DNA from: a candidate division FCPU426 bacterium
Lineage (GTDB): Bacteria > Oederibacteriota > JAAXVQ01 > JAUVAV01
Length of the DNA stretch: 64,000 nt
Assembly (NCBI GenBank): GCA_030637655.1
Contig: DAOWGI010000002.1
Span: 3,122-67,121 of the forward strand
Direction of reading: 5' to 3'
Part shown: piece after piece, positions 59,042 through 64,000 of the stretch
How the letters are laid out: every line of letters begins with the position of its first letter
Numbering within the stretch: the stretch's first letter is position 1
Position numbers and translations under genes: made by a program
Notes under the pieces: model-generated
What the model saw: the letters and a program-made list of their open reading frames with translations, nothing else
What the model was told of the DNA's origin: nothing
Databases searched by the model: none

Positions 59042-62000
59042 ATGAATAAAATCCCATCTATTGCTGCTTTTCGCCATCCCCGGCTTAGCATTTGGCTGAA
59101 AGCTTGCGCCATTTTGATGACCGTGAGTTTTGTGCTGCCCTACGTGACCTGGGCCTTTGATGCCGGGAATTATGCTATATCCCAACCTCATTTTCTGCGA
59201 ATTGCTCACCTGGGAAAAGCGCTGAACGTTCCGGATAAAATCGGCGTCATTAAACAGGGTTTTCAGGGTAATGGCAAAACCGTGGTCTGTATCCAGGATT
59301 TGCATTGCAATTATGAGGTACAGAAGAATATTGCCAATATTATCCAGCACCTGGTAAAAAAGCACGGCTTGAAGCTAGTGGGCGAGGAAGGGGCATTTCA
59401 TACGGTCGATACCTCGCCAATCAGCGCTTTCCCTATAAAAAAAGTCCGGGAAGAAGTAAGCGATTATTTTGTCAAGCAGGGCAAGATCACAGGCGCGGAG
59501 CATTATGCCGCCATCAGCGGCGGCGTTATTCAACTGGAAGGCATTGAAACTCCCAAACTGTATGCAGCCGGCCAAAAAGCAGTGCGTAGCTTTTTGAATG
59601 CCGAGAGCCAGGGCTATTGCTATGATCTGCGCGATATGCTGGAAGAATTGAAAGCTGATATTTATAATTCCCAACTCTTGAAATTCGATGGCAAGCGCGT
59701 GGCTTATCGCGAAGGCGATATAGACATTCTGAAATACAGCGCATATCTGCATCGTATAGCCCGCAAGCTGCAAGTGGATTTGAGCGTGTATCCCAATTTG
59801 GCCCGCTTTCTCAGTCTGAAGCAGAATATTTTCTCCGCAAAAGTTGACCCGGACCAGCTTTTCCAGGAACTGGACAAACTGGATGCCCAAATCCGGCAAC
59901 AGCTCTATACGGATAAAAAGCAACAGGAGTTGGATGAATTATATACCCGCCTGGATATTGTCGAAAGACTTCTCAATATTTCCGTTTCCCAGGAAGAATT
60001 GCAAGCCTTTCGCACAGAGCGGGAAAAATATACAACCCAGGCATTTATAAATTTCGTAGGGGCGATTCGTGAATCGCCCACCAATGAAGTGGATTATATT
60101 GAAAGTGATATGTATATCCTGGATGAATATTTAAAACAAGTGGAAGAGTTCTATCGCCTGGCAGATGAGCGGAGCATCCACTTTGTGGACAACCTGGTCC
60201 GCAAAATGGACCGCCTGGACGAGAACCTGGCAGTCATGATCAACGGCGGTTTTCATACTGACAAAGTCCTGGCTGAACTCAAGCGCCGGGATATCACCTA
60301 TGTTTCCATCAAGCCACGCGTGACCCAACAGGATGTGGTGAATCCGTATTTTTCCCTGCTTCAGGGTCGTAAAACCCCGTTGGAAAAGCTGCTGGCCAAG
60401 AATCAGACGATAATGGCGATAATGAATGGGTGGGAGAAGGATCCATCATTGACTCAACAAGTTGTATTATCTGTAAAAACATTTCGCGAACTTATGAGAC
60501 ACGGCGAGATAAAGATAATCCTAAAAGATTATCAGAAGAAATCTTTAGCTGCCTATATGGAACAATTTTCCAGCATTAAATTACTTAAAATAGAAGGCGA
60601 AGGCCTTCCGGACGGAGTTTATGCTTATTATTTATCAATTAACGGGAAGAAATCAGATAACGTTTCGCTGGTTATGCGTAAAGGTCTTGTGCCGGAGATA
60701 TGGCTGAACCAGCTTAATTTCGTTAGTTTTCAAAAATATTCGCGATGGATTTTATTGGTTGTTAGGTCCGTGAAAAAGGTTGGTCAAGTGCGGCAGGCGG
60801 TTCGGAAAAGTCCGAAGGCCTGGCCTGAAATGTTTTTCAAGGCGTGTGTGCTAGCAGTACCGGCATGGATAAAAGCAATAAAAAAAGAAGCATTAGCAGG
60901 CGTGGCAGTTGGAATCGCGCTGGCAGTATTTATAGTCAGCGTCAATGTACCGGGCATTGTAATAACAGTACTGTTGAGTTTAACTATACTAACACAAATG
61001 AGAATGGATTTAAGGTATATGCAATTAGCCGGAGTGCCGCGAGTGGCAGGACAATGGATGTCCAAGGTTAGACAAAAAACCAAACTTGCTTTATTGAACG
61101 AAGGGTTGCCGGCGAAAACAGTGCCAGGCACCGAAGCCGAAAAAAAGATACCTCAACATAAAGAGTTGAATACCAAAAATAACGAGACAAGTAAAACCTT
61201 GAAGGATCGCTTCGCGAACTTGCTGCTGCACTCGGATAACATTCCGCGGGGCGCGTCGCTTACTCACGAATTATTCCGTTCATTGTTGGCTATTGATGAA
61301 AATACTGCCCTTGAGGGATGGCTGAAATATTTTGTGCCGGTTTATAGTGGTGTTACAGAAGAGGTGTGTAGGTTTAATTCGGAAATGCCCCAGACGCGCA
61401 TGCCGGAAATACTGATTTTGGTAGGTTTGAAATTAGCTGACCGGGAGCTGGAATACCAAGCGCAATTAGCTCGCTTGATAAGAGGGCAAAAGGTGGACTT
61501 GAAGGCAGTGGGCCCGGTTTTTGATACTAGTATGAATAATTATTATAATATTTTAGGAGTTTCACGCGATGCTTCTAGCCATGAGATTAAAAAAGCTTAT
61601 AGAAAATTGGCTTTAAAATATCATCCGGACCAAACTCGCGGAAATAAAGAGGCTGAGGAGAAGTTTAAGAAAATAGAAGGGGCTTATTCGGTCCTAAGTG
61701 ATCCAGATAAGAGAAAAACGTATAATTTGATGGGCCATGCTGCTTATACAAAAAGGCAGAGGTTTGGCGGCGGTATTATGTTGTGGCTGCGGAGTATTTG
61801 GGTCGGGATAGGCAATTTTTTAGATAGTCTGGGAGTAGAGGCAGCTTGGGTTAAGAAGGTATTTAGCGAAAAGACTTATGACTACGCGGTGGCCTCGATC
61901 GCGGAAAATGCCATTGTCAAGTATGCCGGACCATTACTGGCTCCGGCTCTCATAATTTTGTTTCCCGAAATCACTCAGAATCAGGCAGCCTGGGCGCTTT

Positions 62001-64000
62001 TCCTCGGACTGCATATTCCTCAGATGTTTTGGAAAAAAGGCCGGCAGCTGCGCTATACTCTGCCCACTTTTGCACTAACAGCCATTGGCTTGTATTCTGA
62101 CCTTTCGCCCCTGGGCGATGGTTTGATTGTGCATTTAGCCGTGAATTTGGTTCTATACGGGATCGCACCGTGGATTATGAGCCGTATGGGCAGGGCTAAA
62201 CTAAAGGAAAAAGCACAGAAATTAATTAAGCAGTTAGCTGGAATGTTGAAAAAGGAGCCAGGTGCCGAAAAAAAATCTAAAACAATGCAATATTCGCCGC
62301 TCTCTATAGCAGAAAGCGCTTTAGAGGAAACTCATCCAGGATTTGCTGAAAATCATCCTGACCTATACTATGAAATCACTACGGAAATAGTGCCTAAATA
62401 TGAATCATTACTATTTATTTGGGGCAAGAGGGAGGTGGCATTTAAGAAATTAAGAACAGAAGTAAATGAGCTTCTTGAGAAAGAAGGGCTGCAAGAAATA
62501 GAATTGAAGATGGAAGAAGTATATATACTTCCTTATGAAAAGCTGACCAAACATTTTATAGTAGGGAGTTTGTCGGTTTTCCTAATGTTTCAATATCCCG
62601 GGATAGCGTATCTTATAGCGGCAACAATACCGTCGTTGATTTATACACTGGTTCGAACCAATATTTATCAATTAATGTACAAAGGGAGAGAAAAAGAAAA
62701 ACGGTTATGGTGGGTCGGCTTTGTTTTGGCAGTTACGATGAATTTCAGGATGCTGATTTTGCCTATGTTGATTTATGTGATATCAGTAATATTTAAAATA
62801 ACAGGGATATTATTTGGGATTTGGATTTTTACTCTCGCTTGTTACGGAGTGTGGTACGGCATAAAACTAACACAGGAGGATGATAAAGCGCGACGATTAA
62901 CTATCCGAATTATTGCCTGGTATAATAAAAAAGTTCTGGAGTGGAGAAAAAAGGGGAAGGGCTTAAGAGCCAGGAGTAAGGGGCTCTCAACAGCAGACAA
63001 AAAAGCGGAGCAAAGCTTTGATGAAGCATTAAAAGCAGCGGAGATAAAAATAAATAAATATTTAACAATTCTGAATATACCTGATATCCCTTTGGATGAA
63101 ATTAATTATGATGTGATCGTGGAATATGCCGAGAAAAAAACCTATGGATATGGGTCATTTAAAGAAACAGATGAACAGCATAAAGCATGTTCGGTATTAC
63201 GGGAACTATATGAAATAATGGGCAAGATGATTCTGAGGCAATTATATGAAGATGTCAAAATAGTCAATGAAAAAATGATTTCTGCTCAGAAAATTATACA
63301 ACTGCGTGATCTGTTGAAAAAAATTGATGAAAGTACTGATAAAAGTGTTTGGGAGTCGACCTTAAACGGGATTGTTGAGAAAAGCAAAGAGTTCCAATTG
63401 AGTTTTAATATAAATATTGTACAACCAACGTCAGCCGGTTATCCTTCAGAAAAAGAATATCGCGAAAATGTGTCGGAGATGATTGAACTTGTTCGGAAGT
63501 TCACTGAGTTGGAAAAACAAATATCTCCGGCAGCTGCGGGCGAGTTTCGCGCAAGTGAAAGCAAACATGATGGCATTCTGGCGGTAGAACCGCCTATCGG
63601 AAAGATGATTTCAATAATTGAGCTAGAGTATCTTGTGCGTAAGGAGAAGTATGAGGATTCAAAATCCAGTCATAATGTCGAAAAGCTAATTGAGGATGTG
63701 AAAATAAATACCCCGGGCACACTGATAGAAGAATTTCTTCGCGTATTTTTAGTGCTAAAAGAGAATTATGAAATAAAGCGAAAAGATATACAGTCAGGCA
63801 TTACTACACCCCTTGGCGGGAAATCCAGTCTGCTAAAGAAATGGACGCTTATGCTGTTTCCGGATTGGGCAGGGCGTAAGTATACCAAGCTTCGTCTGGT
63901 TTTCATTGAAACCGGCTGGGTGCTGTTTTTGGGCGGGGTAGTGATGACCGGGCTGTGGGTTTTGAGCATGCTGGGAATGCCAATGCTCGCGGATTGGTTT
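59042..64000 (+). CDS. 5' part (1653 codons, no stop inside the window) of a giant polytopic membrane protein with an internal DnaJ-type J-domain
   Basis: I translated it by hand codon by codon from ATG 59042 (GGGAGAAAAA upstream) to 64000 and found no stop. It is missing from the ORF track, presumably because it has no stop in the window. The J-domain is [31 protein letters not shown]...[21 protein letters not shown] at about 61541-61723. At least 8 hydrophobic TM-like segments are present. Confidence 0.8.

Follow-up and report, generated by a model that had tools for sequence, protein, structure and literature searches.

Near its end, the 64,000-nt stretch of DNA analysed here (the window) contains a plus-strand reading frame that starts at ATG 59042 and is still open at position 64000, which raises the question of whether it is a real gene and, if so, what kind of protein it encodes. 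The first-pass annotation had described a giant ORF, absent from the ORF list and preceded by a ribosome binding site GGGAG. These observations hold: translation gives 1,653 codons with zero stops, a Shine-Dalgarno-like GGGAG precedes the ATG (Table 1), and the frame is missing from the list because ORFs that overrun the window go unlisted. Given the base composition of the region, the chance of a stop-free frame of this length is about 10^-48.7. Extension of the contig recovers the full ORF of 2,574 aa without interruption: it occupies positions 11535-19259 of ENA scaffold L001, with its first 1,653 aa identical to those of the window, and the 7,725 nt of the gene are 100% identical and uninterrupted in the NCBI MAG contig JAGLMY010000193.1. 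In a third sample, the 5' 604 nt of the gene are identical. Codon-usage log-odds are positive for frame 1 and negative for frames 2 and 3 in 8 of 8 blocks of 300 codons. The minus-strand ORFs 59039-59365, 59375-59923 and 60784-61131, previously called shadows, are all in the ORF list and deserve that name; their codon usage scores below that of the plus frame over the same spans, and they lie wholly within a plus-frame region with thousands of homologues. The impression that the distal part is more AT-rich stands only as a local dip (GC 0.38 and 0.34 at 62500-63499; GC3 0.35 for aa 1201-1500) and not as a trend, GC returning to 0.45 afterwards.

The frame could also be taken for an artefact (a chimeric assembly, the remains of a pseudogene or a frame open by chance), given that the tail has almost no homologues and that one stored gene call on the NCBI MAG contig begins only at codon 831. 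This alternative is effectively refuted and retains hardly any credence: the 7,725-nt gene is identical across independent assemblies from different samples, an open frame this long would arise by chance at about 10^-49, the codon bias is frame-specific over the entire length, the head is under purifying selection, and other family members keep several of the tail modules. Most likely the gene is intact and encodes a polytopic inner-membrane protein of 2,574 residues, the initial 64% of which lies inside the window. The neighbouring genes are ordinary ones (GT1, M54 peptidase, MCP and CLC channel).

Table 1. Features of the gene in the window; aa, residues of the 2,574-residue product.
Feature	Position (nt)	Strand	Basis and remarks
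Shine-Dalgarno-like GGGAG	59028..59032	+	9-10 nt 5' of ATG 59042; sequence read directly
Codons 1-1653 of 2,574-codon gene	59042..64000	+	Runs 2,766 nt past window; open frame, identical public contigs, coding signal per block
Predicted signal peptide, aa 1-38	59042..59155	+	Hydropathy; AF2 helix 13-38; family pattern
Family-defining head, aa 39-465	59156..60436	+	Homologues, AF2, Foldseek, dN/dS
First His motif, D86-L-H88-C89-N90	59297..59311	+	C-terminal end of strand 80-86; invariant in alignment A1
E116-G117	59387..59392	+	End of strand 112-115, 28 residues past H88; invariant
R377	60170..60172	+	Within conserved FYxxADxRS helix; invariant
Second His motif, G402-G403-F-H405	60245..60256	+	End of strand 396-402; invariant
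Basic linker, aa 466-596	60437..60829	+	Composition, net charge +12; 81% identical to same position in P0093
First TM cluster past head, aa 597-660	60830..61021	+	2 or 3 helices; hydropathy; AF2
Soluble region ahead of J-domain, aa 661-832	61022..61537	+	No recognised family
J-domain, aa 833-895	61538..61726	+	PF00226; HPD at aa 861-863 (nt 61622-61630)
Recurrent TM module copy 1, aa 894-1059	61721..62218	+	Iterated HMM; G909-G910, Y946, E955, F987xxxH991, H1031xxxN1035
Orphan soluble region, aa 1060-1170	62219..62551	+	No Pfam match, no homologue found
TM cluster, aa 1171-1275	62552..62866	+	About 4 helices; hydropathy
K/E-rich helical orphan region, aa 1276-1574	62867..63763	+	Composition; includes AT-rich dip; no homologues found
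Recurrent TM module copy 2, aa 1575-1766	63764..64000	+	HMM E 2.4e-28; aa 1575-1653 alone inside window

The N-terminus had been read as a signal-anchor. The hydrophobic segment is present, but its make-up is more like that of a cleavable signal peptide than that of an anchor: the n-region is positively charged, the h-region spans 12 residues, and F39-D40 comes directly after the c-region P33-Y-V-T36-W-A38 (TWA/FD). A corresponding cleavage-region pattern, P(-6), [TAS](-3), [AS](-1), F(+1) and [ED](+2), characterizes the family, whose n-regions have a median charge of +2, and the motif occurs in 131 of 164 complete family N-termini. We infer a Sec-type signal peptide, probably cleaved after A38.

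What follows the signal peptide, the head, is the part that the protein shares with its relatives. The 89 giant homologues have only aa 1-460 in common with the query, always at their own N-terminus. Against cluster representatives the head has 7,784, 5,992 and 1,571 matches at E<=1e-3, 1e-10 and 1e-30, respectively; among the best 150 of the 7,784, it starts at residue 1-43 in all but one, in proteins of up to 7,768 aa. At least 522 head loci are found in GTDB species representatives. The best 80 of these are spread over 13 MAGs, with 11 or more in the richest MAG, and some lie in tandem; no conserved upstream neighbour, be it a secretion component or an immunity gene, was found in these 80 loci. 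The taxonomic distribution, which the first-pass annotation had proposed to check, covers MAGs of FCPU426, Firestonebacteria, Goldiibacteriota and Omnitrophota, and one paralogue (P0003) lies in the same MAG as the query gene. The tails are unrelated, comprising kinases, PPDK-like domains, glycosyltransferases, methyltransferases, FBP aldolase, FBPase and others. Even the closest heads carry other cargo (Pkinase in P0092; AAA_5 and LRR in P0093), while further relatives have DSPc phosphatase, HATPase-like or sigma-70 region 4 domains, and one has PF22785, a DSP-phosphatase domain from polymorphic toxin systems. Tail modules recur at differing positions in different paralogues, bearing out the mosaic architecture suspected earlier. 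The query is one paralogue in a very large, previously unannotated head-and-tail family, a dimension beyond the view of the initial annotation. By computation, the family's proteins start with a predicted Sec-type signal peptide and a ~425-aa domain assigned to the Tiki/TraB/Ere/ChaN superfamily, and their tails are mosaics of shuffled modules.

The AF2 model of the head (pLDDT 85, pTM 0.78) predicts a Tiki/Ere/ChaN-like alpha/beta core, with parallel strands at 80-86, 112-115, 164-167, 396-402 and 419-425, and a helical insert of ~220 aa (aa 171-391). D86, H88, E116, R377 and H405 are located at strand ends in the model and, together with C89, G402 and G403, are invariant in the head alignment. 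The spacing of 28 residues from His to Glu is the same as in RRSP (H3902/E3930). D[LA]H[CAS] occurs in 177 and GG[FY]H in 189 of 191 family proteins; no other motifs of the head are as conserved as these two, which correspond to the 10-letter motif and the MINGGFH in which a resemblance to TraB/PrgY/Tiki proteins had been noted at very low confidence. The top five Foldseek matches are EreC and Bcr135 (prob 0.98-0.38), with ChaN at rank 17 and HopBA1 at rank 30, all Tiki-superfamily structures (PMC6254334); zero matches reach E<=0.001 and TM-scores are only about 0.2. Two distant family members match PF04187 ('Tiki superfamily, ChaN') at a sub-threshold E of 1e-3 over the R...GGFH stretch, the part with which R377 aligns. 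The query head itself matches no Pfam or NCBIfam model (PF05139, PF01963 and PF04187 all miss), gives nothing against Tiki-family Pfam models even at E<=10, and has no significant hhalign match to E. coli YbaP of the TraB family. Because of the fold prediction, the Foldseek ranking, the 2His/2acid spacing and the sub-threshold PF04187 matches, which lend the earlier hint support, we place the head, as a predicted member, in the Tiki/TraB/erythromycin-esterase/ChaN hydrolase superfamily.

The head keeps every residue of the 2His/2acid/Arg active-site set, and purifying selection acts on it (dN 0.20, dS 1.8 and dN/dS about 0.11 against the same-genome paralogue, the longest identical run being 26 nt); the D-x-H, E, R, H set stays invariant while paralogues share 25-40% identity. 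Set beside EreC (6xcs), Bcr135 (3b55), ChaN (2g5g), HopBA1 (5t09) and the RRSP C2 domain, it resembles the Tiki superfamily in its predicted parallel beta-sheet core with flanking helices, and has counterparts of the RRSP/Ere 2His/2Glu motifs: acid-x-His after the first strand, Glu 28 residues on after the next, and, around a later strand, Arg before and GxxH after. Like PrgY and Tiki, it is predicted to be extracytoplasmic and membrane-tethered. It differs in that its first acid is Asp, an invariant Cys follows the His (DLHCN), the ~220-aa helical insert takes the place of the Ere lid, and it invariably caps the N-terminus of a long protein (1,100 to >7,700 aa). We know of no described Tiki-superfamily member that caps such long proteins.

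The TM clusters, K/E-rich helical regions and J-domain reported for the tail are all present, the first two by hydropathy and composition; the full tail has about 20 TM helices. In the first cluster, AF2 predicts with low confidence helices 591-613, 619-633 and 636-650, whereas hydropathy alone gives a 2-helix hairpin at 612-653; a hydrophobic segment lies at a similar distance from the head in 106 of 150 family members. The region at aa 661-832 has no Pfam match, and only aa 652-698 are common to other proteins, P0092 and P0095. The J-domain matches PF00226 with an E of 1.9e-27 and 95.6 bits (cut-off 27.8). It is the only part matched by the DjlA model (29.8 against a cut-off of 162) and by that for the DnaJ equivalog (108.5 against 377.2). 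As in bacterial DjlA and eukaryotic Sec63, a canonical J-domain with HPD adjoins TM helices, in a loop between TM segments as in Sec63, and by analogy its expected action would be local recruitment and activation of Hsp70. The query belongs to neither the DjlA nor the Sec63 family, has no G/F region, zinc finger or client-binding domain, and devotes only 2.4% of its 2,574-aa chain to the J-domain. Because a homologue search found none for most of the tail (aa 1048-1172 and 1275-1590), the role of the whole protein beyond the J-domain is guesswork.

Adjoining the J-domain is a TM module of ~170 aa that recurs in the family: an iterated HMM detects it 55 times, in 41 of the 191 proteins, at 1-4 copies per protein. 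Its second copy in the query shares 67% identity with P0093 3010-3184 and 36% with P0001 645-814. Conservation centres on a Glu (96%), FxxxH (87% and 98%) and HxxxN (95% and 87%) in successive predicted helices, which follow the order of motifs 1, 2 and 4 of Abi/CPBP (Rce1-like) intramembrane proteases. Unlike these, the module has one conserved Glu only and no motif 1 Arg, leaving EExxxR incomplete; it is embedded, often repeatedly, inside giant proteins, and it matches neither PF02517 at E<=10 nor PDB sequences. The apparent resemblance is at the motif level only.

With moderate confidence we favour a polytopic inner-membrane protein that joins an exported hydrolase head to a membrane-tethered Hsp70 co-chaperone domain, one of many paralogues built on this head-and-tail plan. 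Exported by its signal peptide, the head would lie on the outer side of the cytoplasmic membrane and may hydrolyse an envelope substrate, as a peptidase or an esterase. The chain would then cross back into the cytoplasm through an odd number of TM helices (probably three, aa 591-650), which would leave the J-domain in a loop that joins TM bundles on the cytoplasmic side. There it could dock DnaK-ATP through its HPD and stimulate the DnaK ATPase. The query would then be a membrane-tethered Hsp70 co-chaperone, like DjlA in function and like Sec63 in loop placement, while other paralogues would tether kinases, sugar-metabolism enzymes or methyltransferases beneath the same head. The 2-helix hairpin at 612-653 would instead leave head and J-domain on one side of the membrane, and the net charge of +12 before the first TM cluster argues, by the positive-inside rule, against a periplasmic linker.

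Other functions can be proposed for the same parts. The protein may be an autoprocessing membrane polyprotein, in which the head, the Abi/CPBP-like TM modules or both cut the precursor, in cis or among paralogues, and the J-domain and other pieces act independently. A predicted protease-fold head beside a signal peptide is the constant element in thousands of long proteins, a TM module with protease-like E...FxxxH...HxxxN lies between soluble modules, twice in the query, and modules take varied positions across paralogues, as if they were autonomous units. The searched text of West-Roberts et al. (10.1101/2023.11.21.568195) suggests the same for N-terminal C39/S8 peptidase domains of Omnitrophota giant proteins. 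An exported head could, however, reach periplasmic loops only, and module borders show no conserved cleavage-site motif beyond the GG pair at the TM module start. The TM module itself lacks the second Glu and the Arg of EExxxR as well as any PF02517 or PDB match, and many bacterial Abi-domain proteins are scaffolds rather than proteases. We consider autoprocessing unlikely.

Less likely again is a transmembrane sensor or receptor, whose non-catalytic ChaN-like head would bind a ligand or haem in the periplasm and control a cytoplasmic tail (J-domain, kinases, phosphatases, sigma-factor regions). Its layout of signal peptide, extracytoplasmic domain, TM segment and cytoplasmic output is that of bacterial receptors, at the sequence level Pfam links the head only to PF04187, the haem-binding family of ChaN, with ChaN also among the structural matches, and relatives' tails do carry Pkinase, DSPc phosphatase, HATPase-like and sigma-70 region 4 domains. 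Yet catalytic-type residues that stay invariant at such low paralogue identity point to an enzyme more than to a binder, the metabolic enzymes in many tails (FBP aldolase, FBPase, PPDK-like, glycosyltransferases) are not signalling outputs, and known receptors do not resemble proteins whose tails run to 1,500-7,000 aa and include many TM clusters. Improbable in our view is an exported effector resembling polymorphic toxins, in which the N-terminal module would deliver the protein, TM clusters would enter the target membrane and cargo such as the J-domain would act in prey or host, as in MARTX. A conserved N-terminus with hypervariable, shuffled C-terminal parts recalls polymorphic toxins, as does the PF22785 of one relative; Tiki-fold domains occur in the toxins RRSP and PMT and the effector HopBA1, and for Omnitrophota, which have giant surface proteins, an episymbiotic or predatory life has been proposed. 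Against it, domain searches found no toxin domain in the query, the cargo of relatives is mostly of housekeeping metabolic type, the 80 loci showed no conserved secretion or immunity gene upstream, the query's own neighbours are ordinary genes, and dozens of 2-7 kaa paralogues per genome would be a very costly arsenal.

The favoured membrane-tethered architecture has a close parallel in Omnitrophota (Nielsen & Lui 2026 preprint, 10.64898/2026.06.07.730766; West-Roberts et al. 2023 preprint, 10.1101/2023.11.21.568195), and we rate the query as akin to the long, membrane-anchored multi-domain proteins recently described there. Shared features are a signal peptide, TM helices scattered along the chain at about one every few hundred residues, tails in which unrelated enzyme domains follow one another, and the uniqueness of most sequences. 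The Pfam repertoire of head-family tails is that of the Omnitrophota 'multi-enzyme' SP+TM long proteins: in the searched text of the two studies, the catalogue includes PF08323, PF00534, PF04055, PF13419, PF07517, methyltransferases and PPDK_N, all of which occur in head-family tails. That searched text makes no mention of a common conserved head; the N-terminal peptidase-type domain beside the signal peptide is C39 or S8 in the Omnitrophota proteins and Tiki-like in the head family. The Omnitrophota studies concern proteins of >=10 kaa, whereas the query has 2.6 kaa and the family members found 1-8 kaa. Some head-family members do come from Omnitrophota, but most are from FCPU426, Firestonebacteria and Goldiibacteriota.

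The plus-strand open reading frame that starts at ATG 59042 is a genuine gene, and it extends beyond the window. The first-pass annotation had claimed a giant ORF here, and translation does give 1,653 stop-free codons over 59042-64000 (+). The chance of so long an open frame is about 10^-48.7 (stop probability 0.066 per codon under the local base composition), and GGGAG stands 9-10 nt 5' of the ATG. The frame is missing from the ORF list only because open frames that reach the edge of the sequence are not listed there. The contig extension that the annotation had called for is available in public contigs, traced via the neighboring glycosyltransferase, which carry the full gene of 7,725 nt, or 2,574 aa. 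Residues 1-1,653 of the copy on ENA scaffold_91 (sample SAMN18200494) are identical to those of the window, and the copy in NCBI MAG GCA_023139775.1 (JAGLMY010000193.1) is 100% identical and uninterrupted over all 7,725 nt. In a third sample, the 5' 604 nt of the gene are identical. Codon-usage log-odds, trained on the Pfam-supported genes of the window, are positive for frame 1 and negative for frames 2 and 3 in 8/8 blocks of 300 codons. Three minus-strand ORFs that had been named as shadows of the gene lie inside it, score below the plus frame, and are indeed shadows. That the gene is an artefact is hardly worth entertaining.

The distal part had also been described as more AT-rich. There is indeed a local dip, with GC of 0.38 and 0.34 at 62500-63499, but beyond it GC is back at 0.45. 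For aa 1201-1500 (window 62642-63541), the GC3 value is 0.35, compared with 0.42-0.53 elsewhere in the gene; in this stretch, which falls in an orphan K/E-rich region, GC is lower at all three codon positions. It may represent an insert that was gained recently or that evolves fast. On the NCBI MAG contig, where the gene occupies 2942-10666, the stored gene call begins at 5432 (codon 831) and comprises 1,744 aa. The call lacks signal peptide, head, and first TM cluster, though the DNA is identical to the 2,574-codon gene. Start-site mis-annotation of this kind may be hiding heads in public records.

We place the conserved N-terminal part, or head (aa 39-465), with good confidence in the Tiki/TraB/Ere/ChaN superfamily, an assignment that is well supported despite weak structural statistics. 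In the head alignment, made of 26 shorter relatives, D86, H88, C89, Q94, E116, G117, R377, G402, G403, and H405 are invariant, and the motifs D[LA]H[CAS] and GG[FY]H are present in 177 and 189, respectively, of the 191 family proteins analyzed. An AlphaFold2 model of the head from this alignment (pLDDT 85, pTM 0.78) predicts parallel strands at 80-86, 112-115, 164-167, 396-402, and 419-425, alternating with helices, and a helical insert of ~220 aa. The invariant residues lie at the C-terminal ends of the modeled strands. When the model, TM helix and large helical insert included, was compared with the PDB by Foldseek, ranks 1-5 went to EreC (6xcs/6xcq) and the Ere-like Bcr135 (3b55/2rad), with probabilities of 0.98-0.38; at lower ranks were ChaN 2g5g (17), 2qgm (28), and HopBA1 5t09 (30). 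Strong global superposition (E<=0.001 or TM-score ~0.5) was not reached, the best E being 7.4e-3 and the TM-scores 0.19-0.24. The EreC, Bcr135, ChaN, and HopBA1 structures belong to the Tiki superfamily, whose defining features are a core of parallel beta-sheet and a 2His/2Glu motif, in RRSP E3900, H3902, E3930, and H4030 (PMC6254334). Like members of the superfamily, the head is predicted to have a central parallel beta-sheet flanked by alpha-helices, and like RRSP it has an acid and a His (D86-x-H88), a Glu (E116), and a second His (GGFH405), with the His-to-Glu spacing of 28 found between H3902 and E3930. Unlike in the 2His/2Glu set, its first acid is Asp, not Glu.

Searches by sequence gave little for the query head itself: there was nothing even at E<=10 against the Tiki-family Pfam models (PF05139, PF01963, PF04187), no significant hhalign match between the head alignment and E. 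coli YbaP of the TraB family, and nothing in the PDB with either the single sequence or the profile. Two distant members, P0087 and P0083, have sub-threshold matches to PF04187 ('Haem-binding uptake, Tiki superfamily, ChaN') with E of 0.0012 and 0.001 (19.3 and 19.6 bits vs. 27.7), which span the conserved Arg and the GGFH stretch. A TraB/PrgY/Tiki hint, first offered at very low confidence, is thus correct on the strength of the fold model, the Foldseek ranking, the motif spacing, and these distant matches. Membership of any described family inside the superfamily is not supported. No Pfam or NCBIfam model describes the head; it adds a new branch, and a very large one, to a known superfamily.

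At the N-terminus, a basic n-region is followed by an h-region of 12 residues and the c-region P33-Y-V-T36-W-A38/F39-D40. The pattern is a family trait: P(-6), [TAS](-3), W(-2), [AS](-1), F(+1), [ED](+2), with a median n-region charge of +2. Of the 164 complete N-termini, 148 have the hydrophobic segment and 131 the motif. Cleavage by signal peptidase I follows the -3/-1 rule. Because the N-terminal pattern obeys this rule, the head is most likely exported and possibly cleaved. A strong hydrophobic segment is found past GGxH in 106 of 150 members (median distance 229 aa), and therefore the common core consists of signal peptide, head, a linker of ~170 aa, and a TM segment. The helices between the head and the J-domain of the giant protein can be drawn as a hairpin (612-653, from hydropathy) or as three helices (591-650, from a low-confidence AlphaFold2 model of aa 466-1653, which was made without an alignment, has a pLDDT of 38.5, and is a rough helix map only). 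The basic linker has a net charge of +12, which speaks against a periplasmic position. J-domains act with cytoplasmic DnaK, and for that reason three helices are favored, an arrangement that would leave the head outside and bring the J-domain inside.

The J-domain is the only curated family that Pfam and NCBIfam searches of the full 2,574 aa, as the whole ORF and as tail segments, returned. PF00226 matches aa 833-895 over profile positions 1-63 of 63 (95.6 bits vs. a cut-off of 27.8, E 1.9e-27), with HPD at aa 861-863 within KYHPDQ. Against the bacterial DnaJ model (Hsp40 class A, TIGR02349), the score is 108.5 bits vs. a cut-off of 377.2, and the match covers profile positions 1-77 of 354 only. 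In contrast to DnaJ, the J-domain here passes directly into a TM segment, and the G/F region, the zinc-finger repeats, and the C-terminal client-binding domains are unmatched. The DjlA equivalog (NF006948) matches over the J-domain stretch only, at 29.8 bits vs. 162. Overall, the protein has a signal-peptide-like N-terminus and about 13-20 TM helices; the hydrophobic clusters are collected in the table with the other features.

Features of the giant protein (aa), matches of its tail in head-bearing relatives (P numbers), and elements of the window (nt)
Feature	Position	Counterpart or strand	Basis or score
N-terminal hydrophobic segment	aa 14-41		hydropathy
Hydrophobic cluster after head	aa 597-660		hydropathy
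Further hydrophobic clusters	about aa 903-1047, 1172-1274, 1616-1826		hydropathy
Soluble C-terminal part	744 aa		hydropathy
Tail block	aa 471-609	P0093 474-612	81% identity
Tail block	aa 652-698	P0092 1333-1379	66% identity
J-domain and next TM	aa 832-915	P0133 1764-1849	42% identity
Tail block	aa 1592-1768	P0093 3010-3184	67% identity
Tail block	aa 1592-1768	P0092, P0001, P0096, various positions	36-54% identity
C-terminal domain	aa 1924-2574	P0102 2918-3493 (own C-terminus)	24%, E 1e-22
Hairpin upstream of the gene, arm pair	58799-58818 / 59005-59024	+	20 nt, 95%
Hairpin upstream of the gene, arm pair	58828-58860 / 58940-58972	+	33 nt, 82%
PLD-like protein	26635-28503	+	
DUF6603 protein	28481-32104	+	E 1e-134
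1,086-aa ORF	32108-35368	+	
2,331-aa ORF	35413-42408	+	no Pfam match

Direct searches of 5.8 billion proteins with aa 896-1830 and aa 1831-2574 found no homologues of the tail. Pieces of it do recur at non-collinear positions, but only among proteins recovered through the head. One of these proteins, P0093, matches part of query 1592-1768 a second time at 3961-4044, so the module is duplicated within it. The sequence comparisons suggest ongoing shuffling of modules among the genes for long proteins. Residues 1048-1172 and 1275-1590 are orphans, and none of the 80 family loci showed an orthologue with this tail. High-identity blocks (54-81%), again non-collinear, are common to the query tail and P0092, P0093, P0133, and P0102.

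By an iterated HMM, the two TM clusters (894-1059 and 1575-1766) represent a single module, which is found 55 times in 41 of the 191 family proteins, 1-4 times per protein. Conserved in it are GG, Y (96%), E (96%), FxxxH (87% and 98%), and HxxxN (95% and 87%). The order and spacing of E, FxxxH, and HxxxN recall motifs 1, 2, and 4 of the Abi/CPBP intramembrane proteases (EExxxR, FxxxH, HxxxN; PMC3578759); unlike those proteases, the module is without the second Glu and the Arg. PF02517 gave nothing at E<=10 with seven module sequences, and the module profile gave nothing relevant in the PDB, Rce1 included. The likeness to Abi/CPBP is a lead, not a classification.

A homologue search across 5.8 billion proteins yielded 89 relatives of 900-2,900 aa (23-84% identity), which have only query residues ~1-460 in common, always at the relative's own N-terminus. 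Their tails contain Pfam domains as varied as PPDK_N/PEP-utilisers, SIS, class II FBP aldolase, FBPase, glycogen phosphorylase, GT1/GT2/GT5, methyltransferases, radical SAM, sigma-70 region 4, SecA/SecY, and armadillo, among others. Exhaustive phmmer against 1.84 billion cluster representatives gave 7,784 head matches at E<=1e-3, of which 5,992 pass E<=1e-10 and 1,571 pass E<=1e-30. Among the 150 best of the 7,784, all but one have a head that begins within residues 1-43, and the longest protein has 7,768 aa. The apparent length ceiling of ~2,900 aa among the 89 matches, many of them at 2,870-2,888, was an artefact of the search, as the lengths of the phmmer members show. At least 522 head loci are present in GTDB species representatives; the best 80 of these are spread over 13 MAGs (FCPU426, Firestonebacteria, Goldiibacteriota, and unclassified bacteria), and one MAG holds as many as 11 copies; some copies are in tandem. 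The window itself holds no head paralogue. P0003, in the same MAG as the giant gene, is a 2,798-aa protein with 71% head identity that is otherwise unrelated; P0001, which is a KAR34 locus by cluster membership, is apparently from that MAG as well. The divergence between the giant-gene and P0003 heads (dN 0.20, dS 1.8, ratio about 0.11; identical runs of <=26 nt) points to old paralogues kept under purifying selection rather than to recent gene conversion. Cargo differs again under the closest heads: a Ser/Thr kinase domain in P0092 (85% identity) and AAA_5 with LRR in P0093 (82% identity). Literature searches on giant proteins of Firestonebacteria and FCPU426 turned up nothing on the head family.

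Long proteins of Omnitrophota offer a close comparison. One preprint reports that 94% of proteins >=10 kaa have a signal peptide or TM helices, and describes a 'multi-enzyme metabolic cluster' class rich in PF08323, PF00534, PF04055, PF13419, PF07517, and methyltransferases (Nielsen and Lui, 2026; 10.64898/2026.06.07.730766). Another likewise describes the phenomenon in Omnitrophota (West-Roberts et al.; 10.1101/2023.11.21.568195). The tails of the relatives overlap the catalog's Pfam set, whereas the giant protein itself has a J-domain only; its 2,574 aa, and the 7,768 aa of the longest family member seen, are also below the catalog's >=10 kaa. A shared Tiki-like head is not mentioned in the searchable parts of either text. 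With the head-and-tail family, the recently described class of long membrane-anchored multi-domain proteins reaches down to smaller sizes and into further candidate phyla, and its members gain an element in common.

On balance, we lean toward a real, polytopic inner-membrane protein with a head and a tail, in which the exported head is an active hydrolase and a J-domain in a cytoplasmic loop recruits DnaK. The domain assignments are computational, and we infer topology, catalysis, and DnaK recruitment. The Tiki-like head would act on the outer face of the membrane, and the tail would set the J-domain in a cytoplasmic loop, where DnaK would be recruited and activated; the giant protein would then be a membrane-tethered Hsp70 co-chaperone. 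An autoprocessing polyprotein is an unlikely alternative that finds an echo in the protease-like motifs of the TM modules, with the missing Glu and Arg to be set beside them. In its specific form, which is somewhat less likely still, the Tiki-like head and the interspersed Abi/CPBP-like modules would together mature the chains of a bacterial membrane-polyprotein system. A family of sensors or receptors with a non-catalytic, ChaN-like head is similarly doubtful; the presence of ChaN among the structural matches favors it, and the invariance of the catalytic-type residues of the head speaks against it. A secreted effector or polymorphic-toxin-like protein is quite improbable: an exported N-terminus followed by variable cargo is compatible with it, and a test for polymorphic toxins or MARTX found no toxin family in the 2,574 aa and no conserved upstream neighbor in 80 loci. 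The same-strand neighbors here are ordinary genes that encode a CLC channel, an ABC substrate-binding protein, an MCP, a TauE fragment, an M54 peptidase, and a GT1; no upstream partner gene is conserved across the 80 family loci, and the GT1 and M54 neighbors are not conserved either.

Very long membrane-anchored multi-domain proteins are recently recognized and unexplained in Omnitrophota and neighboring candidate phyla. One conserved, exported, and apparently catalytic head that caps at least 7,784 sequence clusters of long proteins, dozens of them per genome, provides a common handle on them. If it acts as a hydrolase to mature, anchor, or regulate the chains, the head is an experimentally tractable entry point, being a soluble domain of ~425 aa with five obvious point mutants; it could then help to explain how the giant proteins arise and function. 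As a sequence marker, it can find genes for long proteins and correct their start annotation (one stored call misses 830 residues). The J-domain member would add Hsp70 recruitment to the activities tethered under the head. Should the polyprotein reading be true, each of thousands of long ORFs in FCPU426, Firestonebacteria, Goldiibacteriota, and Omnitrophota would yield one chain that is threaded into the membrane and then cleaved to release individual enzymes, chaperone adaptors, and anchors, with one gene expressing and co-localizing many activities. To our knowledge, such expression from one polyprotein gene is otherwise known mainly from viruses.

Directly 5' of the RBS of the giant gene, at 58795-59030 (+), nested inverted repeats form one imperfect hairpin of ~230 nt; a third arm pair of 11 nt accompanies the two in the table. 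The predicted RNA has an MFE of -90.1 kcal/mol (z = -5.3) and matches nothing in Rfam at E<=1. Between the window and the ENA scaffold, there are four SNPs over 47508-64000, of which three (58959, 58974, 58983) are in the hairpin. Candidate explanations for the hairpin are a structured 5' leader, an sRNA, and a palindromic element. Its sequence is not shared by the 250 nt 5' of each head in the 80 paralogous loci. About 12 of 76 paralogue leaders fold far better than shuffles (z < -3.5), the median z being only -0.55, and a subset of the family genes may thus have structured leaders.

Elsewhere in the window, a series of large ORFs on the same strand fills 26635-42408 (+); they have no relation to the head family, and the series is probably what the first-pass annotation had counted as its first candidate. 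A cobalamin riboswitch (RF00174, 88 bits) at 17426-17622 (+) lies 5' of a 699-aa ORF (17644-19743), and a gene for a BtuR/CobO adenosyltransferase is found at 44435-44983.
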